Positions 3,727 to 38,010 of a stretch of DNA of 45,512 bases are shown here, piece by piece. The DNA is from a virus. The translations under genes and the position numbers were made by a program. Where the stretch lies: IMG/VR virus record IMGVR_UViG_3300048837_001975; one strand, written 5' to 3'. Under the pieces are notes generated by a model. It ran no database searches and was not told the DNA's origin. It saw only the letters and a list, made by a program, of their open reading frames with translations. Position 1 is the stretch's first letter. Every line of letters begins with the position of its first letter.

Positions 3727-6700
3727 CAAAACGGCAATTCGCCCCCGTCTTTATCATTGTTTTTTTCTTCAGGGGTTGCAGGGGACGGAAACAAAGAGTT
3801 TTCGTGCACCTGAAAATCTACAGCAAACTTGATCTCGTCAGAAATCGGGATCTGCTGAAGGTTTACCTGATAGGCGCTTGTAGCTTTGCTATCGCGCCCA
3901 GGAGCAAACCGAACCCCGGATATTGCATCTACCCACGCCTTGTCTTTTTTCAAGCTGTCCATCATCACGCCTTTTGCCGGAGCAGAATCCCTATACTGTA
4001 CATACCACTGCCTGGACACACGGTTGTAGCAGCTCGTAAAATTGAAGTAGAGATTGTCGCCCTCCAGCTTGAGATCCCTGCCAACTTTAATTTGGTCCGC
4101 AAGCGTTCCCCGCATCGATGCCAGGAAACAATCCCACCATCTATTAATGATGCTGGCCGTACTCATTTTATTCATCTGCAGTTCGATTGTTTTATCGAAA
4201 TGCGCCATCATTTCTACGTGGGTAAAAGGGAAGTGTACTTCCGGAACATTCTGAAACATTTGAAAGAAGGTTCCCAAAACCGAAAGGTTCGTGACCATAC
4301 GACTATTTGCCTCTTCATGTCGCTGTGAAAGCGTCGCTTTAAATTCCCTGAATTTAACTTTGAAATTATTTTTTACCGCTTCCCTATGGGCTAGAAATAC
4401 ATCCGTAAAACCGGATATCCCTTTTTTGTTCATATCGGCAAGTTTCTCATATTCCTTAATCTCAGCATCGTCAAAGCTTGTTTTGTCCATAAAATTCCAA
4501 ATCAATCGCGTGATCAATGCTTCCTGATCGGGCGCATAGTTGCCAGTCATAATTACGGACGAAAGAATCGGGATGCTTTCCGTACCCACGTGGCTATCTA
4601 TATTTCCACGTTTATAACCGCGACGGTCCCAAAGGCCTTTAAGAACACCGTCAAGTTTGGGATCTCCATTTTTATATTCCGAGAGCTGCGATATCGTATT
4701 TGCGAATTGAGCAAATTCCCGAACCTGTGCTTTAATGGTACTTACACCACCCTCAAGGTTGATTGCCGTTTGTGGATGGCCAAAAAAACTTTGGCAACAA
4801 TCGGCTAGAAGATCTTTTCCTGATGAAGCTGGTCCAAAAAGGAACAGCATTGGAAATGAATTGATTTGAGAAACAACTATATCCTGGAACATACTGGCCA
4901 CGGAAAATAAAATTCCCATCATTCCGTGGTTCCGGTGAACCTTAATTACTTGAGCAGCATAATTTTGAAAAGTCAGTTTCTCCGGAGAAATTGAAATCAA
5001 TTTCTTTTGTGCCTCAAATTTGTAAAGATTATTACGATAGATCTGGTTGGCTGATGGAACGTAATACATGACATCATCCTTTTCAAAAACTCCATTTTCA
5101 TCAATGGCAATTGGATCTTTTTTTGGTACGGTAATTTTATTGTTCCAAACCCAAAATCCTTCAGGTTGCCAACCAAGTACGTCAACCTTTCGGCCGGTGC
5201 CCATTCCATCAAATAAGTAAGTCTTTAGCAGTTCGTGTTCTTTGCGGCCACCCTTCCATCTAAAATTACCGTGCGCCGTAACCGCATTTTCAAATGCCTG
5301 AGGCGAATTCATATCTGCAGACTGCATATCAAAAATGCGCTCGAGATTATGAATGTTTTTTATGCGGACCAATTTCATTGGAAATTTTTCGTCCTGCATA
5401 TGCTGAATAATTTCAATGCTGAAATTAGAAACCGATCTAAAATGGTATGGCGGCCCTTCGTTACTTTGAACCCAAATTTGATTATTTGCCTGGAACATTT
5501 CGTATCTTTCGATTGTTGGGCGAAGCTTTTCAATGGGTTCTTTAATTCCTTCCGGAAGCTCATAAAAAGTATCTGGCTGCCACTTCACCTCAATTTCATT
5601 TATTTCGGCCTCCTTCATATACTTTTTAAGTTGGGTAACAGTTGTACTGCTTTCCTTGGCAAGCCATTTTAAGTACAGATCCTGCATTGAAACATCTTCA
5701 ATCTTTGCAATTATCTCTGTTAACTTTTTTGCCTCCTGTGCAATTCCTACGGCATCTTTATCCTTAAAAGAATGGTCCATTAAAAACTTAAATCCATCCT
5801 CCCGGTATGTTACTTTATCCAATTCCTTCAAACCTTCAGCTTGAATAGTTTTTTCATATAGACGGACAAAATCATCAGGATCTATTCCTGGTGTAAGCGC
5901 TACAATTTGAACACGGAATTGAAGCTTCATAAATTCAGGAATGTATTTCAGCATAGCTTTTATTCCGGCGGGATCCTGATCCAAACAAAAAACAATGCGA
6001 TCGCATAATTTTCTCAAAAGCTTCATTTGCTTTATAGCTATTGCTGTTCCACAGGATGCTATAGTATTTTTAATACCGTGTGTTTGCCAGGCAATCACAT
6101 CATTATATCCTTCAACCAACCAAGCTTCACCTTTTTTCACAATACTTTCCCTGGCTTCGTGAAGACCGTACCAAAAAGAATCTTTTTTGTAGAGCTCACT
6201 GTCTGAAGAATTGAGCCACTTGGCATACTTTTTATCGGTAGATAAACTACGCCCAGCAAGCCCCACAGGTAACAGGGAAGACCCTTTGCGCTCTATTAGG
6301 GGGTAGATTACACGATCTACCCACTTATCGGTATTTTTGTCTGATACAAGACCTATTTCCTGAGCATCCTTAACGCGGCCTTGTTCTTTGCACAGATTAT
6401 AAATAAACTGGTTACCGGGGGCGTAGCCAATTCTATATTCTTCCGCAATTTCTTTTGTGTATTTTCTTTTCCCGTAAACCTCCAGCTTTGCACGATGATC
6501 TTCCGGCAGTGCGTGGAACTGCTCTTCATATTTACGGATGGTAGCTTCCAAAAGTGGGCGCAGCGCTTCCCTTTTTTCCTGCTTTTCGTGATACAATTTT
6601 GCTTGTTGGCTATCCTCATATTCCAATTCAATGGAATATTTTCTTGCCAAAGTTTCAATGGCTTCAGGATATGTGCAACCGGTCCTCGCCATTACAAAAG

Positions 6701-9767: not shown

Positions 9768-10955
9768 ATGGTTGCCCAAGAAGCTATTTTTGACACAAGA
9801 GTTGACACAAAGAAATTGTTTGTGTCAGTAAAAACTAAATTCATTCCACGCAGTTATCAAAATAAGGAAGGCCTTTCACTTCTTTATCTACACATTACCG
9901 GTAATCAACAGCGAAATAGAATTCCCCTGGATATATATGTAAGGGTGAAAGATTTTTGCCCGAAAGAGCAAAGGCTAAAGACTACCGATGGCCACTCAAA
10001 GGATCTCAATCTAATTATTGATAACCTGCAGAGTAAAATCACTTCTATTAAAACAACCTATCGACTAGCCAATAAAAAATTGGACGTCGATTCGCTTACT
10101 GAAGAATTTATAAATGGCATTCCACGAATCAATTTTTTTGCATTTGCAGATTGGTTCCTTCAAAAACAAAAAGGACAGCTCGCGAAAGGCACCTATGAAA
10201 AGCAGTATTATATGCTGGAAAAATGGAAACGCTGGAAGAAAACCATTTACTTCACAGAACTTGACCAAAAATTTATCTTGAACTTCCGGCAGTGGATGAA
10301 TAAGCTAGGAAACAATAAAACTACTGTTGAAAGCAATATTGCAACACTAAAAAAGTTTTTAAATGCCGCAAAAAAACACGGGATTTTATTGCCAATTGAT
10401 GTTGATGATATTAAGGTAGGCAGTACCACGGGCAACAGAACGGACTTAAAACCATCTGAGGTAAACCGCCTGTATGAATATTATAAAAGCAGCTTTATAA
10501 ATGACCAGAACCGCCTAGTGCTTGGCTACTTTCTCTTTTCTTGTTTTACTGGGCTTCGTGTTTCCGAAGTATTGTCAATCCATCGCAGTCAATTTGATGA
10601 AGGTTTTTTTGAATATTTTGAAAAGAAAAAAGATAGAATGCAGCGTAGAAACATAAACGAAAGTACCAGGACACTACTTTCTTATTGTGATGGGCTTTTC
10701 ATTGAAAAGAAAGATCCTATCTATATGAACCGTCAAATAAAAATAATAGCCAACACCTGTGGAATAACAAAGAAAATTTCATTCCACGTTGGCCGACATA
10801 CATTTGCTACCAACTTCCTAAGAGCTGGAGGCGATGTAGTATCGCTCCAAAATCTTTTAGGGCACAGCAATATAAAGCAGACTATGATCTACGTTCACAT
10901 TGTGGAGAGCGAGGTAAACGAAAAGGTTTTTATAATAGACAAATTATTCAATTGA
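9768..10955 (+). CDS. int: Tyrosine site-specific integrase
   Basis: Catalytic-domain signatures are TGLRVSEVLSI, HVGRHTFATNFL, LLGHSNIKQTMIYVHI (R...HxxR...H...Y). The N-terminal arm/SAM-like domain is typical of Bacteroidetes phage integrases. Confidence 0.9.
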   Translation: MVAQEAIFDTRVDTKKLFVSVKTKFIPRSYQNKEGLSLLYLHITGNQQRNRIPLDIYVRVKDFCPKEQRLKTTDGHSKDLNLIIDNLQSKITSIKTTYRLANKKLDVDSLTEEFINGIPRINFFAFADWFLQKQKGQLAKGTYEKQYYMLEKWKRWKKTIYFTELDQKFILNFRQWMNKLGNNKTTVESNIATLKKFLNAAKKHGILLPIDVDDIKVGSTTGNRTDLKPSEVNRLYEYYKSSFINDQNRLVLGYFLFSCFTGLRVSEVLSIHRSQFDEGFFEYFEKKKDRMQRRNINESTRTLLSYCDGLFIEKKDPIYMNRQIKIIANTCGITKKISFHVGRHTFATNFLRAGGDVVSLQNLLGHSNIKQTMIYVHIVESEVNEKVFIIDKLFN

Positions 10956-26395: not shown

Positions 26396-26836
26396 ATGGA
26401 AAAATTGAAAGAGGCGAAAGCCACAAACAACAAGAAAAGTGCAACCGCTAAAAACGCAACCGCAAAAGCGGAGCAAAAGCCACAAGCACAAGGAGAACCA
26501 AAAAAGGAAGATGCAAAAAAAGAAGTTGTGCAAAAAGCCACAACCACCATTGACCAAATTTTGAACCCTACTGCAGAAAGCAGAGTTAAAAAACTTGAAA
26601 TCTTTAACAAGTTAGCCGACAAGAAAAACCGCATAGATACGAAACTTGACGAGTTAACGAGTTTCAGAGTTAGCCAGGACGGAACAGAAGCGAAAATGGA
26701 ATTTTCTGCAGGTAACGGTTACCGCTTCAAGATTAGCAACCCTTTAACCATTAACATGCTTTTGGACGTGGTAGAAAAAGAACTTTCAACACTTCAAACG
26801 CAAACAGACAAGGAAATTTTAAATTTTCAAATCTAG
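26396..26836 (+). CDS. Hypothetical protein with a Lys/Ala-rich basic N-terminal tail (146 aa)
   Basis: ATG ORF followed by a clear terminator. The N-terminal 50 aa are low-complexity K/A/E/Q. Confidence 0.6.
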   Translation: MEKLKEAKATNNKKSATAKNATAKAEQKPQAQGEPKKEDAKKEVVQKATTTIDQILNPTAESRVKKLEIFNKLADKKNRIDTKLDELTSFRVSQDGTEAKMEFSAGNGYRFKISNPLTINMLLDVVEKELSTLQTQTDKEILNFQI

Positions 26837-26849
26837 TATTAATCAAAGA

Positions 26850-26884
26850 ACCCCTAAAGCCGTTGCAGGGCGATAGGGGTTTTT
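26850..26884 (+). terminator. Rho-independent terminator
   Basis: ACCCCTA ... TAGGGGT stem followed by TTTT. Confidence 0.7.
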
Positions 26885-26902
26885 ATAACACATTATAGCA
26901 TC

Positions 26903-27130
26903 ATGGAAAACAACACTACAAAGAGCCGTAAAACTAACCCTTTTTTACTTTCCGAGCAAGTTAAAAGCATTCTACAAAAACAGGGTTTTTCGTCAATCTT
27001 CAATTATGACGATTATAATTTTTTTAAAGAGCAATGCAAAAACGCATTCAATAAAGCGCAAGCCATAGCGGAGAAATTCCGAGCGGAAGCAGAACCACAA
27101 AAAAACGATTTCAAAGATTATATTTTTTAA
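26903..27130 (+). CDS. Hypothetical protein (75 aa)
   Basis: ATG ORF on the island strand. Confidence 0.5.
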   Translation: MENNTTKSRKTNPFLLSEQVKSILQKQGFSSIFNYDDYNFFKEQCKNAFNKAQAIAEKFRAEAEPQKNDFKDYIF

Positions 27131-27294
27131 AGGTACACGTGAGCGGGGAGGAATTTTGTATAACGGCTTTTGAGGATGCACCCCGATAACAAAAACCTGA
27201 AAACGCCTACCGTTGAATATTGGTAAGGAATTAGCCGACAGGCGAAACGATACACGCTTCAAAACTTTAATTCCAACACTTTAACACAAATATC

Positions 27295-27669
27295 ATGGAA
27301 ACACAAAGTAAAGAATTAACGCCAGTACAACAGAAACGCCAAGCCTTGAGAGAAATTTCAAAAGTGGCTAAAATGATGCTTCAATCCGAAGCGATGGAAG
27401 AAGAGAACGTTAACGAAATCGTGATTAATCACTTCTACACAAACGACACGCACCAAGAATTTAAAAGCTTCAAAGGTTGGATGAAAGCAGGATTTGCAGT
27501 AAAGAAAGGTGAAAAGGCTTTTTGTATCTGGGGAAAGCCAAGAGATAAAAAAGAAACCGACCCCCAAGAGGAAAACGAGGAACAGGGCAAAAAATCTAAA
27601 TTTTACCCTTTAGCCTACATTTTCAGCAATGCGCAAGTTGAACCCCTAAAAAAGAAAGAAAGTGCCTAA
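27295..27669 (+). CDS. ArdC N-terminal-domain-like (DUF1738) ssDNA-binding protein; lacks the metalloprotease half
   Basis: EFKSFKGWMKAGFAVKKGEKAFCIWGKP ... FYPLAYIFSNAQVEPL matches the ArdC-N pattern (F..W...G..VkKGEKg..i ... vFN..Q). Confidence 0.6.
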   Translation: METQSKELTPVQQKRQALREISKVAKMMLQSEAMEEENVNEIVINHFYTNDTHQEFKSFKGWMKAGFAVKKGEKAFCIWGKPRDKKETDPQEENEEQGKKSKFYPLAYIFSNAQVEPLKKKESA

Positions 27670-28318
27670 AACAAGAGATATACCACAGGATTTGAGGGAA
27701 TTTAATTCCCTCTTTTCCTTTATAGCAATGCGCCACGATGCCGCGCGCGTCTTCGACGATTTTCTAACCCTTGTTATTTGTGTGCTCGCACGACAAACAC
27801 AAGAGGACTGGTACCTCAGTACCATAAGAAAATACAGCGAAGACGAGATAAATAGATTTCCCAAAATGCTGGGCAGTTTGTTCATTATTTATGAAAACGC
27901 CCGCAGAGCGGGAGAATGGACAGACCCTCTCGGCTCTTTTTATGAAGCCATTGCCGGCAACTATAAAAAAAGTGGCCTAGGGCAATTCTTCACTCCTGAA
28001 GCGATTTGCACAATGTGCGCCCAAATGATTATTCCAAAAGGAACTTTCGGAAAGAATATCAACGAACCCACCTGCGGTAGTGGCCGTATGATATTGGCAA
28101 CCCACATACACGCTCCCGGTAACTACTATGTAGCACAGGATATGGACCATATATGCGTGAAAATGACTTGCATAAACTTGGCAATGCACGGCGTAAAGGC
28201 AGAAGTCCATCACATGGACACCCTGCAGAATAATACGCCTTGGAATAGCTACATAATTAACCACGACTATTGGAAAACAAAAACGCCATTCGTCTATAAA
28301 ATCAACGAAGGAGATTAA
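27662..28318 (+). CDS. Truncated HsdM-like (gamma-class N6-adenine MTase-like) SAM-binding protein with degenerate motif IV
   Basis: GQFFTPEAICTMCAQMI (motif X), INEPTCGSGRMIL (motif I), CINLAMHGV ... HMDTL are present. The NPPF/Y position reads IINHDYW, and the protein ends 17 aa later. Confidence 0.65.
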   Translation: MPKTRDIPQDLREFNSLFSFIAMRHDAARVFDDFLTLVICVLARQTQEDWYLSTIRKYSEDEINRFPKMLGSLFIIYENARRAGEWTDPLGSFYEAIAGNYKKSGLGQFFTPEAICTMCAQMIIPKGTFGKNINEPTCGSGRMILATHIHAPGNYYVAQDMDHICVKMTCINLAMHGVKAEVHHMDTLQNNTPWNSYIINHDYWKTKTPFVYKINEGD

Positions 28319-28344
28319 GATCTCCTTTTAGTTGTTTTCCTGAA

Positions 28345-28377
28345 ACGCCTTACGCTGCAATCGTAAGGCGTTTTTTT
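28345..28377. terminator. Bidirectional terminator between convergent genes
   Basis: A 10-bp perfect stem (ACGCCTTACG / CGTAAGGCGT) with T7 on the plus side and an A-run on the other. Confidence 0.75.
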
Positions 28378-28768
28378 ATAATCTATCTATAACATTCTTT
28401 TGAAAAAAATTTCTTTCTCCAAATTCTTCCTTGCACCGTTCATAATGGGAGCGGCTATTAGTGTAATTTTCTCTAGAAGTTAGAAACCATTGACCATCTG
28501 GAATATCTTTGTTTAAAACTAAATCCATTCCTAGATACTTTTCTCCTTCAGCAAATTGCTTAAGCGCAAGAAAATAATCTTCCGGAAGAACCAGAACATT
28601 AATACTTGTATTTTTTCGATACTGTTTTAAAAAGTTGTCTATTTCAATTACTCGAACCGCATTTTGAAATGCCTCGAAAGACATCGCTGGAGTCATAGGG
28701 CGATTGTCTTCATTTAGACAATCATTAAACCCTTTGAAAATTTTGTGTAGATATTTTTTTTCTGCCAT
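28376..28768 (-). CDS. Hypothetical protein (130 aa from MAEKKYL; the track start is 28795)
   Basis: ATG ORF divergent from the 28849 operon, in an AT-rich segment. Confidence 0.5.
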   Translation of the reverse strand: MAEKKYLHKIFKGFNDCLNEDNRPMTPAMSFEAFQNAVRVIEIDNFLKQYRKNTSINVLVLPEDYFLALKQFAEGEKYLGMDLVLNKDIPDGQWFLTSRENYTNSRSHYERCKEEFGERNFFQKNVIDRL

Positions 28769-28848
28769 ACCCAAAAATACAAAATATGCGCACATCTGTT
28801 ACATTTTCATTACAATTGTGCGTACAATTTTTTGATTATCTTTGAATT

Positions 28849-29268
28849 ATGGAAAAATTTATATTCAACGACAACGAAGTTTCCTTAGATTCAAAAAAAT
28901 TTAATGATTCTTTATTTTTGGACCAAAAAAAATATAAATCTCCATTTCTTATAAAATTAGACCACGAAGAAATAAAGCAAGTTGAAAAATCTTGGCTTGA
29001 AAAATTTCAGAAGGATGATTACACTTCTTTTATACAACGCTTGATCATTGAACAAAAGGATAAATTTGTAAAAATGGTAGCTAACAAATTCATCCCAGGT
29101 TTTGATTCTGAAAAAATTGAAGAATCTTATATTAAAGAAACTTCAAATTTATTTGATTTTCTTTTAGTCTATGACGAAGAAGTAATTGGTCGCGTCATCG
29201 GCAACTTTGATATGGAAGGAAGAGGACAAAATTTAAACTTTAATTTTACCGGAACACCAGGATTATGA
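28849..29268 (+). CDS. Hypothetical protein (139 aa)
   Basis: ATG ORF with a 4-nt ATGA overlap to the next gene. Lys/Glu/Phe-rich and AT-rich coding. Confidence 0.55.
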   Translation: MEKFIFNDNEVSLDSKKFNDSLFLDQKKYKSPFLIKLDHEEIKQVEKSWLEKFQKDDYTSFIQRLIIEQKDKFVKMVANKFIPGFDSEKIEESYIKETSNLFDFLLVYDEEVIGRVIGNFDMEGRGQNLNFNFTGTPGL

Positions 29269-29615
29269 ATAAACCAGCAGAACACACCCCAATGAAGTAT
29301 GAATATAACGAAGACGGAAGCCTTCGGTCAATTTCTGCTGAAATTATTACCGATAGGGTAAGAAGCAAACTTATTGCTCAGGGAACGCATCCCGAAGTAG
29401 CTGATTTTGTAGAAGAAAATTTTCTTGCATTAAATAGTTTGCATTATTCAGACAACAAAATTAATCCAAATTTTCTGTTTGCAGGAGAAAGAATAACAAA
29501 ATCTGCAGCTGAAAAAATAGCTTATTTAAGACAATTTTTAAAGCCAAACGAAAGCTTGGCTTATATTTTTGAAGGTTGTGATCGGTTTATTGGTCCTCAA
29601 TTTAAAAAAGAATAA
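29265..29615 (+). CDS. Hypothetical protein (116 aa)
   Basis: ATG ORF translationally coupled to 28849-29268. It ends 2 nt before the convergent TerL stop. Confidence 0.55.
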   Translation: MNKPAEHTPMKYEYNEDGSLRSISAEIITDRVRSKLIAQGTHPEVADFVEENFLALNSLHYSDNKINPNFLFAGERITKSAAEKIAYLRQFLKPNESLAYIFEGCDRFIGPQFKKE

Positions 29616-29617
29616 CC

Positions 29618-31300
29618 CTACATCCCATCCAGCGCAGTAATAATAACGCTGCGTTTTCTTTTGGCCATATTTGCCCATTTTTTACGGTACATCAAATACT
29701 TAAAGGTATCACCCATATTTGTAGAGTTCATTGGCAGTTGGAAAAGCGGTAAACCTTCGCTGCTTTTATTTTTATAGATCTGCACACTTCCTTTTTTGTC
29801 CCGCTTCTGAAGAATTTTTGTAAGCTCCAGCGACGATTTCAATTCACGGCATTGGTAAACGTCTATCAATAATTTCGGCAAGCCTTCCATTTGCCCGGAA
29901 AGAACATTTTTCATAAAATAGTATTCCTCACTTTGGTAAATGGTAGCCTGGTCACGGCTCATTAAATTCACCGTCCAGCCGGTACGGTTTCCGGATGAAT
30001 CTATTTCAATACAATCCTTCAGTTCTGCAGCCCACGAACGGCCACTACTTTCGTATTGGTTCCCGCTCCTGTCGTAATACATATTCAAAACCTTCCGTTT
30101 GTGGGGCTTAAAAAACTTTATAAAATGATCACCCATTTCGCGCGAGCTCTCCGGCGCCAGTTTATAAATATTCTTCAGACATCTAAATTCCTTGCCGCGC
30201 TCCTGGGCAATTACCATACTCAGCATTCGCCCAAAATCGATACCGCAATCCAATTCAGCATTGGGATCCAGGTACCGCAAAATATTACAGTTCGCTTCTT
30301 CGTGAAGCCCAAGGGAATGATCATAATTTTCATTGATACCATCCCTATAAAAATGGTCCTCACTCAATCCGGAATAAAACTTCTCGCCATCTTCCACGCC
30401 GCCCTTTATGGAAAGAACGCTTTGCTTGAATTCTTCCCATCCCAAAGTGTTGAGCAGATCCTTCAACACTTCCGGAGTAAGCACGTCTATATTGGTAAAG
30501 GAAGATGCCACAATAAAATAAGAAAGGTTTTTCCGAACCCGCAACCAGTCAGCGTATAGCCGTGCCCTGGCTCTAATAAGCTTCCTCACTTCCGCTTTAT
30601 TCTTATTTTTTAAGGCGTTGGCGAGTTTCATTTCATTCTGATAGTAAAAGTAGCCGCAGTAATAGGCCACTTTTGCCTGCTCCAAATTCATATTTTTCCG
30701 AAGCTCCAGCACCCAAGGATCATCGCCTTTTCCCAAGTTGGGTAAATCGGTAGTAAAACAGGTACCGCGGTAGTATGCGGAATGCTGGTACATATTGAAA
30801 CCACGCAATGCCGGCAGGATGATATCCACTTTTGACTTGCCAATGTATTTTACTTCATCCGCCCCAATGTATTGGTACGAGTTCCCCGCAAGTCCGGAAA
30901 CCTCATTTGCGGAACCAATGATGATGGCAGCGCCGTCGCGATGATAAATTGTTTTTTTCCAGTTTTCTACAGGAATGTAGGGCTTTGCGAAATACTTTGG
31001 CGGCGGCTCCCCCTTTACGTAGTCAATGCCATACTTCCAATCGCGAAACTCTCTCCAGCCGGTTTCCAAACCTGGTACCAAGTTTGTCCTGGCATTTTCA
31101 TACGTATTACAAAAAAACATCTGCAGACTCCGGGGCATTTCAATTAAAGCTTCCTGAAAGCGCTCGGCGTGGATTGCGGTCGTTTTACTCGTTCCACGCC
31201 CGGCAATTACCTGCAGATCCTTTGGAGCGATGTACGCAATAGCCTGGCTAAGCCAATTGGCATAGCGAACTTCTACAAGCGGATCGTTTTTTGTTATCAT
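29618..31300 (-). CDS. terL: Terminase large subunit
   Basis: N-terminal Walker A (VIAGRGTSKTT). Size of 560 aa and a two-domain ATPase + nuclease-like layout. TerS-like HTH gene upstream. Confidence 0.8.
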   Translation of the reverse strand: MITKNDPLVEVRYANWLSQAIAYIAPKDLQVIAGRGTSKTTAIHAERFQEALIEMPRSLQMFFCNTYENARTNLVPGLETGWREFRDWKYGIDYVKGEPPPKYFAKPYIPVENWKKTIYHRDGAAIIIGSANEVSGLAGNSYQYIGADEVKYIGKSKVDIILPALRGFNMYQHSAYYRGTCFTTDLPNLGKGDDPWVLELRKNMNLEQAKVAYYCGYFYYQNEMKLANALKNKNKAEVRKLIRARARLYADWLRVRKNLSYFIVASSFTNIDVLTPEVLKDLLNTLGWEEFKQSVLSIKGGVEDGEKFYSGLSEDHFYRDGINENYDHSLGLHEEANCNILRYLDPNAELDCGIDFGRMLSMVIAQERGKEFRCLKNIYKLAPESSREMGDHFIKFFKPHKRKVLNMYYDRSGNQYESSGRSWAAELKDCIEIDSSGNRTGWTVNLMSRDQATIYQSEEYYFMKNVLSGQMEGLPKLLIDVYQCRELKSSLELTKILQKRDKKGSVQIYKNKSSEGLPLFQLPMNSTNMGDTFKYLMYRKKWANMAKRKRSVIITALDGM

Positions 31301-31971
31301 TGTTCCCGGGGATCTTCTTTTTCCTCAAGGAAAAGTTTCATAGGAAGTACGCCAGCTTCTTCCTGTATTTTTTTGATCACCACTTCGTGCAGCTCTGGGT
31401 AGGCTTCCGTCATAGCCTTCAATTCTTTTCGGCTCACTGGAGGCAAACCTACATCTTCCGGAAGTTGAGAATAAAGCTTCAATGGACGGCGTGTAAATTC
31501 TTCATCAATTCCATCATCATCGGGATAAATTTCTTTGATGACATCTTTCATATCAATCATCATTTTCTGCACCTTGGCCGCATCTGCCGTATTGGCCGTA
31601 AGCATTATGGCCACGGAAAGGTTTTTTTCCATTTTCTCCAGCAATTCATTCAGCATTGCTTGTTTGCTTGCCGTAGGATCAATATAAAAGAACTCCACGG
31701 CCTGATTGTGGAGTTTTGTGGCCAAATACCTAGAATAGCCCTCTACGTTCACCAAATAAGAGATAATGGCGTCTTTTGAGCCCCATTTGTCAAAACGCAA
31801 ACGCATAGCGCGCACTTTGTCCATGGCATCAAGATATTCCACAACTTCCTTGGGCATCGTTTTGCTCTCAAAACCACGCTCCATATATTCGTAAATCTGC
31901 TCTATGGAAATATCCTGTATGTCGGGGAATTTACGTGCCAAACCAAATTCTGTTTTTAATGGCCAGAACAT
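31297..31971 (-). CDS. Hypothetical packaging-module protein (224 aa) sharing a DKWGSKD motif with the ParB-like protein
   Basis: ATG ORF with a 4-nt overlap to terL. The motif RLRFDKWGSKDAIISYLV resembles RLNSRSDKWGSKDFLDCYV in 2365-3090. Confidence 0.5.
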   Translation of the reverse strand: MFWPLKTEFGLARKFPDIQDISIEQIYEYMERGFESKTMPKEVVEYLDAMDKVRAMRLRFDKWGSKDAIISYLVNVEGYSRYLATKLHNQAVEFFYIDPTASKQAMLNELLEKMEKNLSVAIMLTANTADAAKVQKMMIDMKDVIKEIYPDDDGIDEEFTRRPLKLYSQLPEDVGLPPVSRKELKAMTEAYPELHEVVIKKIQEEAGVLPMKLFLEEKEDPREQ

Positions 31972-32314
31972 CCTTGGCCTCTTTTATTTTTAGAAAAGTT
32001 TGTGCTGCAGTAATGTTTCCGCTTTCGGCAAGTTGGCGCTGTTTGTCTATCAACAAAAATTCGCTCTGAAGCTTTCCGGCTTGTACAGCGTTCCAAAAAT
32101 CACTGTCCTTAGTTTCGGCTTGCATTTTAAATTCACCGTACTCAAAGCCTAACTGTAGTGCCATTTCACGAAGTGTAAACCCGCAGGCTGCCATCCGCTG
32201 AATTAATTCTTCATCGGTGAGCTCTTCGGGTTCCGGCTTGGATTCCTTTTCAGAAAATTTACTCAAGCTGCCGAAGAATTCGTCTTCGTCATTATTTTTC
32301 CATTTTTTAGCCAT
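31931..32314 (-). CDS. Putative terminase small subunit / HTH DNA-binding protein (127 aa)
   Basis: HTH-like segment LIQRMAACGFTLREMALQLG and a position upstream of terL. Confidence 0.4.
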   Translation of the reverse strand: MAKKWKNNDEDEFFGSLSKFSEKESKPEPEELTDEELIQRMAACGFTLREMALQLGFEYGEFKMQAETKDSDFWNAVQAGKLQSEFLLIDKQRQLAESGNITAAQTFLKIKEAKDVLAIKNRIWFGT

Positions 32315-32666
32315 AAAAAATTATTAAACACCAAGCTATTTTACAAAGAATGTGCAAGGCTTGATCCTGATCAATAGTTGTGTAATTTTCACATTTCAGA
32401 AAATCAATAATCCAATGAAAAATGAATTCAGCAAAAGCTAAATAAATATTTTGGGATATAATAAAAACTGCTCCAGCGTGCGTAAGACTATGCGCTGAAA
32501 GCCAATAAACCCAAACGTGTTTTACAGGTTTTTGTCCTTCAGGAATTTTTGAAAAATCCAATGGGCGATTCCTGTTTTTTCCCCTCGCCATTGAATCTAT
32601 TTGCAAAGGATAATCAGCCACTGCGTGGCCAATAATGAAAAGAAACAATAATGTAACAAATTCCAT
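32307..32666 (-). CDS. DUF3307-like membrane protein (119 aa from MEFVTLL)
   Basis: N-terminal TM helix followed by GHAVADYPLQ (the H..DY.lQ signature of DUF3307), plus further TM helices and His residues. Confidence 0.55.
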   Translation of the reverse strand: MEFVTLLFLFIIGHAVADYPLQIDSMARGKNRNRPLDFSKIPEGQKPVKHVWVYWLSAHSLTHAGAVFIISQNIYLAFAEFIFHWIIDFLKCENYTTIDQDQALHILCKIAWCLIIFYG

Positions 32667-32676
32667 AGTCTCAATT

Positions 32677-32985
32677 TTAATCAAGAATTTCCCAATCTGA
32701 AGCAAATGAATCTGCAACAGTTGGACTATAACTTGTAATTGAATTACTTAAACCAACCAACGCAAGTTGATCAGAATAATAGATTGCATCAATTTGCTCT
32801 TCCTCAAATGTTTTTAAGAAAAAATCTTTTACCGTTTGCGGCAAGGATTGCATTTTCGGAACTACTTCTTTTGGAATTTCAGAAGGAACTTGACGAAAAA
32901 TAAACCGTTTGTCCTGATGCCAGCTTGAGCGTCGAACACGTTTTCCATCATTTAATGCTTGAATTACTTTTTTAAATTTTGCCAT
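32677..32985 (-). CDS. DUF2829 (Tad2-like, Thoeris anti-defence 2 family) protein
   Basis: The N-terminus FKKVIQALNDGKRVRRSSW and C-terminus TVADSFASDWEIL match the DUF2829 hallmark (f.eAl.alk.GkkvrR.gW ... DllAeDWeiv). Size is about 100 aa. Confidence 0.75.
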   Translation of the reverse strand: MAKFKKVIQALNDGKRVRRSSWHQDKRFIFRQVPSEIPKEVVPKMQSLPQTVKDFFLKTFEEEQIDAIYYSDQLALVGLSNSITSYSPTVADSFASDWEILD

Positions 32986-33036
32986 AATTTCGATTTTCTA
33001 AATATTTATATCAGTATTCGGAACATTTGTTACGTT

Positions 33037-33687
33037 TTAGGAAACTTTTGTTCCAGTTTTGGAAATTATTCCATTCAAAGCTTTATACCGGATATCCACT
33101 TCAGTAAAAAGTTTCATCCTAAAATCAAACAATCCCTTGCAGTTGGCAAAGGCGTATTGTTCGTAGTATGCGTTTTCGCTCCAATTGCCGGACCCTTCAA
33201 TTACAAAATGTCCTTTCTCGGTTTCCAGTAAACATACCTTGGCGTGTACCCAGGCGAACAACACATTTAGGTTCGGATTCTCTTTGGCGCTCGCCGATAG
33301 CAGATCTGCTGTTATCGGGTTTCTCTTCAACATCGTATCGCTCACTAAAAGCGTTATTTGGTCCACAAACCCTTGCCTGTGCAAATCAATTAATGCTGTA
33401 ATTACCCTTTTATTGATGCTGTACGTAGTGGCGTACAGATGCTTTATGGTGGTCTGCTTGCAGATCCACGGAATAAAAGTGAAGGCATTAAACGAATTGT
33501 CACTCTGCAGGAAGAAAAACTCTTCCTTTTCCGGCAGTCTTTTTATGTCTGCCTCCAGCTTGGCAACTTTTTGGTAATGCGCAGCCAGGTATTTTGAAAC
33601 AAAGCTTCCTGTTTTGGAATCACCGACATTCCCCGAATCGGCGCCCTCCACAGGAAGATTGAATAATCTATTTCTTGTCGGCTTCAT
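33037..33687 (-). CDS. PLD-superfamily single-HKD (Nuc-like) nuclease candidate
   Basis: WVHAKVCLLETEKGHFVIEGSGNWSENA contains HxK ... GSxNWS, as in Nuc/BfiI-type single-HKD enzymes. At 216 aa it is compatible with a homodimeric Nuc-like fold. Confidence 0.6.
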   Translation of the reverse strand: MKPTRNRLFNLPVEGADSGNVGDSKTGSFVSKYLAAHYQKVAKLEADIKRLPEKEEFFFLQSDNSFNAFTFIPWICKQTTIKHLYATTYSINKRVITALIDLHRQGFVDQITLLVSDTMLKRNPITADLLSASAKENPNLNVLFAWVHAKVCLLETEKGHFVIEGSGNWSENAYYEQYAFANCKGLFDFRMKLFTEVDIRYKALNGIISKTGTKVS

Positions 33688-34882
33688 TCAATCGGGCATC
33701 GATTAAATTAAGCTCATCTTGCCATGCTTTGATTTTAGCCTCGGCTTTTTCTTTTTTCGCGGCTTCCATTTTCTCCAGCTTTGGCGTTTCACGCGAAATA
33801 TAAGAGCGAAGATTGCCTTGGCGTTTCATAGCCTCTTTAGTAGAATAGCCATCCACTTGCTTTTGGAGCATATCATCTGCAAATATGGGATGATTGCCAA
33901 GGATCTCTTTATGCTCTTGGTAGTAGTTCAACTCATCGTAGATAAGTTGGTTCAGCTCAAAATTTTCAACGGAAGTTTTACCTAATTCAAAAAGGCCATC
34001 CGTTTCACCTGCAGCTTTTTTTCTTTGAATTTCATTAAATGCAGCGTGATACGCTTTTAAAGCTGTGAATTTATCGGCCACAAGAATTTTGAATTTGTCT
34101 GGGCAATCCTTTTCATTTAAGAAAGGAAATTCCTCGCGCAGTTTTTTCTTTTCCTGAGCTTCGTCTCCAGGTTCGGGATTTTGATTTTCTGAAGCTTCGG
34201 TTTGTGAAGTTTCTTTGGAATCCTCAGAATTCTTAGTTTTTTCAGAACCTTCAGTTTTTTTTGTTTCAAGGCCCTCTAAGGCTTCGCTTTCCTCTGTTTC
34301 AACTTCCATTGATTTAAGCAAAGCATATTTAGCTTCCTGCAAATTCAATACTGCAGAATTTTTTGCTTGAGCAATTTTGTTCTTTTGAGTTTTCTCAATC
34401 AAGGCTTTAAGATCAGCGCTCTTTTTTGACTCTGGAGTAATTTCTTGCTCAGCTAACCAAGCAATCATTTCCTTGTTTCCTGGCAATCCTTTTGCGAATT
34501 TTGGAAGATCTGCAGGTAGCAGCTCGTCCAATTTTGAAAACTCGGTAAGATCTACAGCTTCTTTTTGTAAATCTTCTAAAGAAGTATTTACAAAATCAAT
34601 TGCCAGCAATCTTTGCTCTCCAGTTAAAATTTCTTGAGCAACTTCTTCCTCTTTTTTCTTCGGAACATACGCGCGCACTTCAGCATCGGTAATACCGTAG
34701 GTTTGCTTTACGTCATATTTCAATGTTTCCAGATTTGCCTTACTAAAGCCGCTGGCATTGTAATATTTTGCCAGTGATGGACCGTGATGGGGATGTTTTA
34801 TAAATAGCTGAAGCAATTCATTAAATTGCTTTTGTGGAGCTTCATTGCTATTAAGCGCCTCAAGTACTTTCTTTTTTTCCAT
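33668..34882 (-). CDS. Hypothetical acidic protein with a low-complexity E/K/S/T-rich centre (404 aa)
   Basis: Long ATG ORF and first gene after the capsid-module terminator. Confidence 0.6.
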   Translation of the reverse strand: MEKKKVLEALNSNEAPQKQFNELLQLFIKHPHHGPSLAKYYNASGFSKANLETLKYDVKQTYGITDAEVRAYVPKKKEEEVAQEILTGEQRLLAIDFVNTSLEDLQKEAVDLTEFSKLDELLPADLPKFAKGLPGNKEMIAWLAEQEITPESKKSADLKALIEKTQKNKIAQAKNSAVLNLQEAKYALLKSMEVETEESEALEGLETKKTEGSEKTKNSEDSKETSQTEASENQNPEPGDEAQEKKKLREEFPFLNEKDCPDKFKILVADKFTALKAYHAAFNEIQRKKAAGETDGLFELGKTSVENFELNQLIYDELNYYQEHKEILGNHPIFADDMLQKQVDGYSTKEAMKRQGNLRSYISRETPKLEKMEAAKKEKAEAKIKAWQDELNLIDARLNEADKK

Positions 34883-34918: not shown

Positions 34919-34942
34919 ATGCAATTGCATTTTTGCAATTGC
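34919..34942. promoter_or_regulatory. Tandem palindromes ATGCAATTGCAT and GCAATTGC
   Basis: A 12-bp perfect palindrome (34919-34930) and an 8-bp core (34935-34942) lie between a terminator and the 34882 start. Confidence 0.5.
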
Positions 34943-35013: not shown

Positions 35014-35832
35014 TTACGAACGCGCTCTTTCAATAAAGAACGTGTCAGTGCCATCGTCAAAGATTTCAAATGTAATGGTCGCATCCTCTAGTGCTGTCCA
35101 GGTTGTTCCATCGGCCAGCATTACGGTTCCAGCAGTTGTGGCACCATTTGCTAAAGTGGAAGGATCTGCACCGCCGCCACCAATTATAGTGAACAATGTT
35201 CCTGCAGGTTGCGTAGCCGAAGCCAAAGCAATCGTACCTCCAGCTGCATCAGCAGGCAGTTTGTACATTAAACCATTTGCAGGAGTCACATCGATCGTTA
35301 AATCGGTTTCATATGGCGCGCCAAAAGATTCTGTGCCATCGTAAAAGCCAGGAACATATTTTGAACCTACACTTTGCTCAAAAGTCATCTTGATCATACG
35401 GCCGCTTGAATCGTCCGTTTGCTCAGCTTTCAACTTCATTGGAGAACAGGGCGTCCCATACAGACGCTTATAACCGTCAATACAGTTATTTGCAAGAATG
35501 AAATAATCTACGCCAATGTTATTCTGAATAAATTCAGAAAGTTCCAATACATCACCAGGTGTGGATCCTTCAAACTTTTGTTTGATGGTTTCCATATCCT
35601 CATCACCTTCGGTGGTGTAGGATTTTACCTGTTTTGAAGGGGTGCAATACACGGTGAACATTTTTGCTCCCGATTTCATTACAATATTCCCTACAGTTCT
35701 AACCCCTTTGCTATCGCGCGCAGGCCATACAAGCACGTCTTCAAAACGGCCTAGGGTTACATTCGGTTTGTTAGCCGCGGCGGCCCCCGCTCCGGGACCG
35801 CTTTTGACTACATTTTGTGGTATCCACGTCAT
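35014..35832 (-). CDS. Abundant structural protein candidate (272 aa): capsid decoration, major capsid or tail tube type
   Basis: Follows the protease and the 716-aa protein and ends at a strong terminator. The C-terminal part is Gly/Ala/Thr-rich and Ig-like. No family recognised. Confidence 0.6.
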   Translation of the reverse strand: MTWIPQNVVKSGPGAGAAAANKPNVTLGRFEDVLVWPARDSKGVRTVGNIVMKSGAKMFTVYCTPSKQVKSYTTEGDEDMETIKQKFEGSTPGDVLELSEFIQNNIGVDYFILANNCIDGYKRLYGTPCSPMKLKAEQTDDSSGRMIKMTFEQSVGSKYVPGFYDGTESFGAPYETDLTIDVTPANGLMYKLPADAAGGTIALASATQPAGTLFTIIGGGGADPSTLANGATTAGTVMLADGTTWTALEDATITFEIFDDGTDTFFIERARS

Positions 35833-35859: not shown

Positions 35860-38010
35860 TTAAGCGATGGTTCTCGCTACTTCTTCCCACACGCCGTCAA
35901 TTTTTGTAAGCGTGATGTTATCTGCACCGTTGGCAAGGATCGCTCCTGCGCCAACGTTTATATTACCCGCTACATCTTGTAGGGTCAGGGCACCACCGGC
36001 ACCACCATTGATCACAATCTCTTGGCCTTCTACACCGCCGATTATTCCCTCAAGGGTATCAACACCACCGGTATAATTGAATTCGTAACCAAGGTCAGCA
36101 TCTAAAGTAGCTGTGCTGAAATCTACATCTGCATCAGGAACAACTGGAGGCGAAGTGGTTCGTTTCACTTCAGTGAAAGTTGTTGCTGTAGTTGCACGAA
36201 GTGTCAAAATACCGCCGCTATTTAAAGAAAAATCAGCATTGCCGGCAAGGGTGATGTTGCCATCATCCACAACCTTCACGCCTGCGCCTACAGCTGTATT
36301 ACCTTGTATCTTGATTATTTGCCCTTCATAGGCACCATTGATGGTTTCAATGTTGGTAGCATAATCATTGGTAATGGTAATGTTGCTGTAGAATTCATTG
36401 ATATTGATTTCTCCAGTTCCATAATCGTACAGACGCACAAAGAAGTTTTCGTTGAAAATTGGCATTCCATTGGTCCATACAGTTTGCACCTTGAAAGCTG
36501 CAGGATCTCCGTCTTTAACTTTGGTACCAATGTGGCGAACACGTACACCGAATTTATAATCGGCAAAAATGTACATATCGCGCTTCAATGATTCCATATG
36601 GTACATTGATTTCTCTGAAGGAATGTTTTCCAAAATCTCAATGTTGTCATCATAGGTGATAAACATAAAGTCGCTTCCGGAAAGTTCAGACAATGGGCAA
36701 AGCTTCACATTGGGGAAGTTTTCAATCTCCATCAATTCCTGCCCGGTGTAATTGTTGTCGTGCCCAAAAAGCACACGCTTGCGCTCTACGTGACGACGGA
36801 TCCACTCCGGAGAAAGATACAGGATAAGGTTAGCGCTGTTTATTTCTTCCAGCGGTACGTTTTTCTCAAGCAGATTTTTTACGTAATCAACAATATTGCT
36901 ATTTGATGGCGCGCCAATCTGGGCTGATTTGAATTTTTTCTCAAGGAAATAAGCTCTCCAAAGTTTGATTAAAATTCCATCACTACGGTGAACAGCCAAA
37001 CCTGGTATTTGAGTTGAGTCAGGCGTAGGAACATATACCCCTTTCACTGCCACAATTCTATCTTCTTGACGTGCACGCTTATCAAGCTCTACCAAAAGGA
37101 ATTTTACAAAGCTCCATTTGTAAGCCTGTGAGCCTTCCTTATTGTACTGGTGCAACCAAGAAGTAAGTAAGGTTTGCAACAAATAACCAGCGTGCTCAAT
37201 ATCTACCTGTACAGGATAGATTTTAGCTTCTTCAGGCTGGATAAGTTGCTTGTTTTTTGGCAACCAGTTTTTCTTTTTTGCCTGGGTAACTTCTGCAGTA
37301 ACAATATTACCATCGGCAATTCTATCTACTACATTGGTACGTATGGGCCAAAATGAAGGAAGCTTTAGGTAATCGCGATTTAATGATTTTAAATCGGCCT
37401 TAACTTCCTTGTAATAAAGGTCGGCATCGTTTTGAAGTTTTTGAACTTCCAAAGAATCGGCAGCGAAAGTTGGCATTGCCACTTGCTCTCCTTTTGCCAT
37501 TTGGTTCCAAGGACGGCCCTCGAAAGCATCGTATTCTTTTTTGGAGCCGAAAAGGTGGCTTTTGGAATGCTGCATATTCTTGTCTGTTTTAGAGTGGATA
37601 ATTTCCAAAGGAGAATCGCCTTCAGCGGTAGACAAGAGCTTTTGTAGATTAGCATCCATTTTTTTGGAATAGCTTTCAATCATAGCTTTGATTTTTCCAA
37701 TCTCAGAGGCATCAATTTTATTATCCTCTTGAGCTTGTTCCAAATCTTCTTGGCTCATTCCGTGAGCGCGTAACATTTCTTCAATTTCAGTTTTTGCATC
37801 AATCAATCGTTGATCATCGTCTGAAATTTTTTCGGCTGCAGCTGCTAATTCTTTGTTGACCATTTCCAACATTTGGGCAACGTCAACTTTACCTTCCAGC
37901 GCATCTTCCAATGCTTTGAGCTGTTCGGGTGTAAAATCAGTAGCAGCATCCTTAACAGGTAATTTGCTGATGCCTAGGACGGCCAAAATCAGCGTGATTG
38001 CTTTCTTCAT
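35860..38010 (-). CDS. Putative major capsid protein with an N-terminal coiled-coil (scaffold/delta-like) region and a C-terminal Gly-rich repeat domain (716 aa)
   Basis: Immediately downstream of the S49 prohead protease. The first 130 aa or so are helical and acidic. Assigned by gene order only. Confidence 0.45.
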   Translation of the reverse strand: MKKAITLILAVLGISKLPVKDAATDFTPEQLKALEDALEGKVDVAQMLEMVNKELAAAAEKISDDDQRLIDAKTEIEEMLRAHGMSQEDLEQAQEDNKIDASEIGKIKAMIESYSKKMDANLQKLLSTAEGDSPLEIIHSKTDKNMQHSKSHLFGSKKEYDAFEGRPWNQMAKGEQVAMPTFAADSLEVQKLQNDADLYYKEVKADLKSLNRDYLKLPSFWPIRTNVVDRIADGNIVTAEVTQAKKKNWLPKNKQLIQPEEAKIYPVQVDIEHAGYLLQTLLTSWLHQYNKEGSQAYKWSFVKFLLVELDKRARQEDRIVAVKGVYVPTPDSTQIPGLAVHRSDGILIKLWRAYFLEKKFKSAQIGAPSNSNIVDYVKNLLEKNVPLEEINSANLILYLSPEWIRRHVERKRVLFGHDNNYTGQELMEIENFPNVKLCPLSELSGSDFMFITYDDNIEILENIPSEKSMYHMESLKRDMYIFADYKFGVRVRHIGTKVKDGDPAAFKVQTVWTNGMPIFNENFFVRLYDYGTGEININEFYSNITITNDYATNIETINGAYEGQIIKIQGNTAVGAGVKVVDDGNITLAGNADFSLNSGGILTLRATTATTFTEVKRTTSPPVVPDADVDFSTATLDADLGYEFNYTGGVDTLEGIIGGVEGQEIVINGGAGGALTLQDVAGNINVGAGAILANGADNITLTKIDGVWEEVARTIA

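Follow-up and report, generated by a model that had tools for sequence, protein, structure and literature searches.

In many phages, a small gene for an HNH endonuclease, such as HK97 gp74, lies next to the genes for the small and large terminase subunits (TerS and TerL). Another group of small nucleases belongs to the phospholipase D (PLD) superfamily; Nuc/NucT, the catalytic domain of BfiI, Zucchini, and domains of SauUSI and NgoAVII carry one HxK...GSxN motif per polypeptide chain. Among the anti-defence proteins of phages, SptTad2, HgmTad2, and their kin are tetrameric sponges (PMC10680739), and related long-insert Tad2 proteins from Bacteroidota bind glyco-cyclic ADP-ribose (gcADPR) and cyclic dinucleotides (PMC10680739). 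In the present study, a locus was analysed in which relatives of the latter two protein groups are encoded side by side. The window, IMG/VR record IMGVR_UViG_3300048837_001975, is an entire 45,512-bp JGI metagenome contig. On its minus strand, the genes of a single-HKD PLD-fold protein (216 aa, 33037-33687), a Tad2-like protein of the DUF2829 family (102 aa, 32677-32985), and a DUF3307 protein (119 aa, 32307-32666) follow one another. The original prediction, made from the DNA letters, was that the three might form a counter-defence cluster or an uncharacterised functional unit. Comparative genomics led me to a different reading, which I consider likely: the PLD gene belongs to the core of the packaging block, while the Tad2-like gene and the DUF3307 gene are separately acquired passengers in an adjoining variable slot.

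Gene order and mosaicism around the PLD gene

Reading of the DNA bore out the predicted layout, with three open reading frames (ORFs) on the minus strand, a 20-nt overlap, and gaps of about 51 and 10 nt. The start of the PLD gene shares 20 nt with the upstream gene g404 (404 aa, 33668-34882), the PLD and DUF2829 genes are 51 nt apart, the DUF2829 and DUF3307 genes are 10 nt apart, and the DUF3307 gene overlaps by 8 nt with the next gene, g127 (127 aa, 31931-32314). Further downstream on the same strand are g224 (224 aa, 31297-31971) and the gene of a divergent TerL (560 aa, 29618-31300). A TTG codon at 32717 was considered as the start of the DUF3307 ORF and was rejected, since homologues and the public gene call both favour the ATG at 32666. 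The single strand, the tight spacing with overlapping or near-abutting ends, and the lack of a promoter-like motif in front of any of the three genes may be taken as signs that the three products, a PLD nuclease, a Tad2-like sponge, and a DUF3307 protein, cooperate as a counter-defence cluster or as a three-part unit. Does this combination occur in other phages?

I fetched 11 and later 80 IMG/VR loci. Each of their ORFs was scored with alignment-derived profiles of DUF2829, DUF3307, PLD, and TerL, while phmmer served to recognise g404, g127, and g224. The counted set consists of 86 distinct loci having the PLD gene plus a downstream anchor gene. It was found that the order g404-PLD-[slot]-g127-g224-TerL is constant in all 86 loci. 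The slot, which extends from the stop codon of the PLD gene to the start codon of g127 (32315-33036 on the minus strand of the window, where it holds the DUF2829 and DUF3307 genes), varies in length between -194 and 1727 bp (median 232 bp). Its ORFs form about 60 clusters that are unrelated to one another, and many encode tiny transmembrane proteins. A DUF2829 gene is next to the PLD gene in eight loci, on the upstream side in two of these, and a DUF3307 gene in two loci. Neither is present in 76 of the 86 loci, and both together in none. Only one further contig has all three genes, and it is an identical copy of the window region from a sister sample.

The same picture was obtained when the search was seeded with either of the two partner genes. 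For these searches of IMG/VR, alignment-based scans were needed, as scans with single sequences had returned nothing for DUF2829 and one locus for DUF3307. Around DUF3307 genes in IMG/VR, a DUF2829 gene was found within 4 kb in 0/80 loci and a PLD gene in 1/80. Around DUF2829 genes in IMG/VR, a DUF3307 gene was found in 0/80 loci and a PLD gene in 8/80, and the corresponding numbers for bacterial genomes were 0/20 and 1/20. Unrelated phages have a Tad2-like gene or a DUF3307 gene, each alone, beside portal, helicase, or other terminase genes. In the slot itself, the two genes also occur one without the other. A Mariniflexile prophage has a Tad2-like gene there without DUF3307, locus L004 has a Tad2-like copy 68% identical to that of the window, and L060 has a canonical HgmTad2-like gene (4636-4986), while L021 and L093 have a 70%-identical DUF3307 protein alone, without DUF2829. 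The slots of L001, L002, L010, L028, L037, L063, and L090 are filled with various tiny transmembrane proteins.

The breakpoints of nucleotide homology lie at gene boundaries. With L003 and L010, the two closest relatives, homology ends at 33051/33071, within 15-35 nt of the stop codon of the PLD gene, and returns at 32215, which is inside g127. With L004, it also covers the DUF2829 gene up to precisely the stop codon at 32677, and it likewise returns at 32215. L021 and L093 match in the DUF3307 gene only, with a nucleotide identity of about 73%. The slot region is thus a gene-by-gene mosaic. Since homology breaks at gene boundaries and the genes do not co-occur in the seeded loci, the trio is not a unit. 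The idea of a cooperating trio, for which the absence of linkage in relatives had itself been named as refuting, is therefore very improbable. Dozens of unrelated ORFs take the same slot in relatives, and the PLD gene stays with the terminase genes even in distant gut phages that have neither DUF2829 nor DUF3307.

It is likely that the packaging block (g404, the PLD gene, g127 for a putative small helix-turn-helix protein, g224, and the divergent TerL gene) is inherited vertically as a fixed string, and that the slot separating the PLD gene from g127 is prone to recombination and differs from phage to phage. Two unrelated passenger genes would then have arrived independently in the slot of this phage. 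Some observations speak against such a clean separation. The DUF2829 gene is beside the PLD gene more often than a random small gene would be (8/86 on either side, plus L106), which also favours cooperation of the three, and a loose functional tie between DUF2829 and PLD is a residual possibility. The GC contents of the DUF2829 and DUF3307 genes (0.336 and 0.340) are within 1.3 standard deviations (SD) of the gene mean of 0.396 (SD 0.045), and low GC is thus a weak sign of foreign origin.

In L038, L039, and L106/L209, a Tad2-like gene is located between g404 and the PLD gene. As this is the other side of the PLD gene, two insertion points flank it.

The PLD-fold protein and the terminase

The 216-aa protein had been predicted to belong to the PLD superfamily, and both the alignment and the structure search agree with this. 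PLDc_2 (PF13091) matches it with E = 6e-6 and 26.6 bits, just below the cut-off of 27, and many of its homologues carry a precomputed PF13091 match. It also matches phrog_20533 at 2.3e-71. A database search gave 643 clusters of homologues, and where a source is named, it is one of the marine Flavobacteriia, e.g., Lacinutrix, Formosa, Tamlana, Bizionia, and Sediminibacter. Across 43 aligned homologues, H148-A-K150...E164-G-S-G-N168-W169 is invariant, as is an N-terminal block, FFFLQ...NAFTFIP (FFFLQSDNSFNAFTFIP). The canonical Asp position of HxK(x)4D is not fixed; the window protein has E155, and E, Q, R, and K all occur there in the alignment.

A PDB sequence search with the PLD protein gave nothing useful. 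However, the PLD fold was recovered with an AlphaFold2 (AF2) model, whose mean predicted local distance difference test score (pLDDT) is 80.8 and whose N-terminal 31 residues are disordered. In a Foldseek search of the PDB, SauUSI was the best match (4.8e-7), followed by the nucleases NgoAVII, BfiI, NucT, and Zucchini. Further matches were PPK1, FAM83, phosphatidylserine synthase, and Tdp1, and the Foldseek probability was 1.0 for SauUSI, NgoAVII, BfiI, NucT, Zucchini, PPK1, and Tdp1. Among viral models, a gut siphovirus protein (1e-14) and the 'NucT-like nuclease' of Arthrobacter phage Galaxy (2e-9) matched, the latter likewise with a probability of 1.0. As judged from the model, the protein has a PLD fold. 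It is probably a phosphodiesterase or an endonuclease. NCBIfam and PADLOC gave no meaningful match for any gene of the block, so the PLD protein is not a known defence-system component.

The PLD protein resembles Nuc/NucT, BfiI, Zucchini, SauUSI, and NgoAVII in its fold and small size, and its single HxK...GSxN motif per chain implies a dimeric active site, as in a single-HKD nuclease. It differs from these proteins in having the extra conserved N-terminal block and in lacking a conserved acidic residue after the Lys, and the sequence identity is only 11-18%. Another difference is that it is encoded by a phage gene at a fixed place upstream of terminase genes.

How far does the association with the terminase reach? 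A megablast search of 8.4 kb around the three genes against GenBank phages gave no match, and thus relatives are detectable there only at the protein level. By tblastn, PLD homologues with 53-55% identity were found in the Flavobacterium phages 6H, 1H, 2A, 23T, the FPSV phages, and laban6-1, all of which are Duneviridae. In laban6-1 and 6H, a g404-like gene, the PLD gene, at most one tiny ORF, a g127-like gene, a g224-like gene, and the TerL gene follow one another, with neither DUF2829 nor DUF3307. The PLD gene is not mentioned in the laban6-1 paper. In 6H, the g404-PLD-terminase block is away from the capsid genes and is preceded by ParB-like and PAPS-reductase-like genes (L002 2760-4449). 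The block therefore moves as a module, and the PLD gene travels with the terminase and not with the capsid. The three genes had been described as wedged between the capsid and packaging genes. This is true of the DUF2829 and DUF3307 genes, but the PLD gene is itself part of the packaging block.

More distant PLD homologues, with 27-28% identity, were found in two human-gut phage contigs. In the first, the PLD gene is directly followed by canonical TerS (phrog_83, 2e-29) and TerL (phrog_9, 2e-112) genes, and this TerL belongs to another family than that of the window. In the second, the TerL gene is two ORFs downstream of the PLD gene. The PLD gene is thus a core gene of the packaging block of this phage lineage and not an accessory one. 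Since its association with the terminase outlasts a divergence to about 28% identity and a change of terminase family, the PLD protein probably has a packaging-connected role, which I infer from the conserved position. It has all of the catalytic HKD residues, and it would most likely be a homodimeric enzyme, a phosphodiesterase or an endonuclease, that works on DNA beside the terminase. By analogy, it is tentatively suggested that the protein could be a DNA-cutting or DNA-processing packaging helper, equivalent among PLD enzymes to the HNH endonucleases by which some terminases are aided. The two have in common a small nuclease gene beside TerS and TerL, but fold and chemistry differ, since PLD enzymes act through a covalent His intermediate and HNH enzymes use a metal.

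A point against a packaging helper comes from TerL itself. In the TerL alignment, Walker A (G34-R35...K39) and Walker B (D148-E149) are invariant, and three Asp residues in the C-terminal half, D355 (in GIDFG), D410, and D531, are also invariant. An intact terminase nuclease would be expected to show just this combination of Walker A, Walker B, and the Asp triad. TerL therefore probably has a nuclease of its own and may need no helper. The possibility that the PLD protein substitutes for a lost TerL nuclease was rejected because the three Asp residues are invariant.

The apparent retention of nuclease residues in TerL would be compatible with a different role for the PLD protein, either as a host-takeover or anti-defence nuclease acting on host or competitor DNA or as a lipid-acting PLD, and merely fixed in its place beside the terminase. 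The PLD fold indeed spans phospholipid synthases, polyphosphate kinase domains, and restriction-type nucleases. I regard such a role as rather unlikely, because the PLD gene is upstream of the terminase genes in 86/86 relatives and its homologues of about 28% identity stand beside a different terminase family. DNA nucleases are also its best structural matches, and the gene is in the late operon with its start overlapping g404.

As for the other genes of the block, g404 is its first gene and matches phrog_21662 at 9.8e-37. Its product has a charged, low-complexity middle, and a homologue is directly upstream of the PLD gene in 86/86 loci. The g127 product matches phrog_20317 at 2e-10 and is found in nearly all relatives. 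It has a conserved C-terminal GNITAAQ motif (G-N-x-T-A-x-Q) with invariant G99-N100, T102-A103, and Q105, and a PDB sequence search gave a weak helix-turn-helix match and nothing else. From these features, g127 is a candidate for the small terminase subunit or a DNA-recognition subunit, although no library labels it as a small terminase subunit beyond a weak match to phrog_309 (0.0076). The g224 product matches phrog_20504, gave no match in a PDB profile search, and has a constant place between g127 and TerL. The TerL protein matches phrog_2 at 1.2e-7. It has no Pfam match, and a PDB sequence search was empty with the single sequence or with a 17-sequence profile.

The Tad2-like and DUF3307 proteins

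The 102-aa protein belongs to the DUF2829/Tad2 family, as had been predicted. PF11195 matches it with E = 3.1e-12 and 47.3 bits against a cut-off of 25, and a PDB sequence search revealed the solved Tad2 proteins SptTad2 (8WJD, 2.5e-9), ModTad2 (9EIB, 3e-7), and HgmTad2/AcrIIA7 (8KBI and 9KZR, 3e-6). An anti-defence role is plausible on account of this family membership. SptTad2 (8WJD), HgmTad2/AcrIIA7 (8KBI-8KBM), and SaTad2 (PMC10680739) share with the window protein the Tad2-like Pfam domain, a length of about 100 aa, and an insertion of about 40 residues. The window protein also resembles the long-insert sponges in being encoded in a Bacteroidota phage by a stand-alone small passenger gene.

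In HgmTad2, gcADPR is contacted by W21, N22, G23, W87, L88, S90, T92, and D93 (PMC10680739). An insertion of 35-41 residues binds cGG or cGAMP via R31, P32, D34, L36, K46, S47, F70, T71, and N85 (PMC10680739). These positions were mapped in the window protein and 42 close homologues, i.e., 43 subfamily members. The insertion is present between beta2 and beta5 (residues 33-72 here and 32-72 in HgmTad2). Four positions do not vary within the subfamily: W22 and D92, which correspond to W21 and D93 of HgmTad2, S47, and the aromatic position 70, where the F70 of HgmTad2 is Y70 here. The most conserved part of the subfamily is the insertion domain (QVPS...MQSLPQSVKD...QIDAIYY), and it is therefore likely that a ligand pocket is maintained, not necessarily for cGG.

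Several substitutions do not fit well with a sponge for the established ligands. The diphosphate-binding N22-G23 of HgmTad2 is H23-Q24 here, and N-G is found in only 15/43 members. The lid loop WNGKG thus reads WHQDK, and it is variable in the closest relatives. T92 is replaced by A91, and S90 by T. Of the guanine-reading residues, R31 is Q32 here (Q in 43/43), and N85 is T84 (T in 28/43). The original prediction had proposed a check of the gcADPR pocket, which gave a mixed result; the W and D are kept, and the N-G loop and T92 are changed. Not every pocket change is disqualifying, because T92 is also absent from ModTad2, whose standing as a Tad2 has been validated. The canonical GWNGKG loop is found in most of the more distant subfamily members from bacterial genomes. 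Taken together, the pocket appears to be conserved within the subfamily and yet unlike the cGG-binding one, and on these residues neither gcADPR binding nor cGG binding can be assumed for the window protein. A further difference from the known Tad2 sponges is the location of the gene, which is embedded in the late packaging operon. An anti-defence gene inside a late operon is unusual.

Nevertheless, I lean slightly towards the view that the window protein is a nucleotide-signal sponge. If so, a Tad2-like tetramer would soak up an immune second messenger of the host, gcADPR and/or a cyclic dinucleotide, and blunt a Thoeris- or CBASS-type defence. This 'Q32/T84' subfamily with a degenerate gcADPR lid may also sequester a signal other than cGG or gcADPR. 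Another view is that gcADPR binding has been lost and that the protein has a different role, such as an AcrIIA7-like anti-CRISPR, structural, or regulatory one. The changed lid loop, the substitutions of T92, R31, and N85, the PDB match to AcrIIA7, and the late-operon location would all agree with this. However, the invariant W22, D92, S47, and Y70 and the conserved insertion domain indicate that a ligand pocket has been maintained, and the same slot of L060 is occupied by a canonical HgmTad2-like gene. The anti-CRISPR activity of AcrIIA7/HgmTad2 was not reproducible (PMC10680739). A role other than that of a sponge is therefore rather unlikely.

A tandem pair of DUF2829 genes was found in a Wenyingzhuangia sp. 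genome (L119 3956-4839), with a long-insert copy followed by a more divergent copy.

The DUF3307 assignment of the 119-aa protein was confirmed by PF11750 (E = 1.7e-7, 31.8 bits against a cut-off of 23) and is accompanied by a match to phrog_2470, 'membrane protein', at 4.4e-27. The motif first given as H..DY.LQ, however, is in fact HxxxDYxLQ (H14...D18). In 34 homologues, H14, D18, Q22, K30, N31, W52, H59, H84, D88, K91, D101, Q102, and H105 are invariant. The AF2 model (pLDDT 94.9) has four long helices, every one of which is hydrophobic, and a search with it against PDB structures found no analogue (best E = 2.4). The protein would thus be a small membrane protein of four helices that carries two HxxxD motifs and further His, Asp, and Gln residues. 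The presence of HxxxD on helices 1 and 3 and of His on helices 2 and 4 suggests a possible buried metal or polar site. DUF3307 homologues are dispersed over many phages, including contigs of more than 200 kb, and are hardly mentioned in the literature searched. With about 120 aa, four hydrophobic helices, and a scattered distribution, the window protein is like other DUF3307/PHROG 2470 'membrane protein' morons, and nothing distinguishes it from them.

Expression, genome setting, and implications

Co-expression of the three genes, as originally suggested, is very likely in view of their tight packing on one strand and the absence of promoter-like motifs of their own. The Bacteroidetes-type -7 motif TANNTTTG was not found upstream of any of them, and a sigma-70 scan gave results no better than shuffled controls. 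All three would probably be transcribed with the late packaging operon. Such co-transcription reflects their location and is therefore no evidence of a shared function. Upstream of g404 on the minus strand are the genes of a 272-aa protein (35014-35832) and a 716-aa protein (35860-38010). The 272-aa gene and g404 are 131 nt apart, and here a consensus scan revealed a terminator-like hairpin (34921-34942, minus strand; GCAATTGC...GCAATTGC, then a T-rich tail) with a 9-bp stem and 4 G-C pairs. This putative terminator may separate the transcription of the capsid genes from that of the packaging genes.

The window derives from a temperate siphovirus whose hosts are marine Bacteroidota and which resembles Flavobacterium phages; its kin are the Flavobacterium phages 6H and laban6-1 (Duneviridae). 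Elsewhere in the window, there are genes for an S49 head protease, an amidase endolysin, a tape measure protein, an integrase, a primase, and an N6-methylase. The integrase is a tyrosine integrase with an Arm-DNA-binding domain (9768-10955, plus strand), in keeping with a temperate lifestyle as in laban6-1. A run of small plus-strand genes (26396-29615) splits the minus-strand late genes, with TerL on one side and the 458-aa, 325-aa, 300-aa, and tail genes on the other. The N6-adenine methylase gene (27662-28318) is inside this run. The two genes adjoining TerL have the lowest GC contents in the genome (0.28 and 0.33).

These findings do not overturn current understanding. They offer a cautionary example, because the packing of a nuclease, a member of a sponge family, and a membrane protein mimics a system, where comparative genomics finds a core gene and two passengers. 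Since Tad2 variants recur in the slot that is bounded by the PLD gene and the small terminase-like gene of Duneviridae-like phages, this slot is a sensible site for mining anti-defence genes in phages of Flavobacteriia. Two questions are raised. Is a PLD-type nuclease involved in packaging together with a very divergent terminase? Does the Tad2 branch with the changed pocket bind a different signal? If the tentative idea of a packaging helper is true, the PLD protein would be a dedicated accessory packaging nuclease, fixed upstream of TerS and TerL both in distant gut phages and across a large lineage of Bacteroidota phages (over 640 protein clusters).

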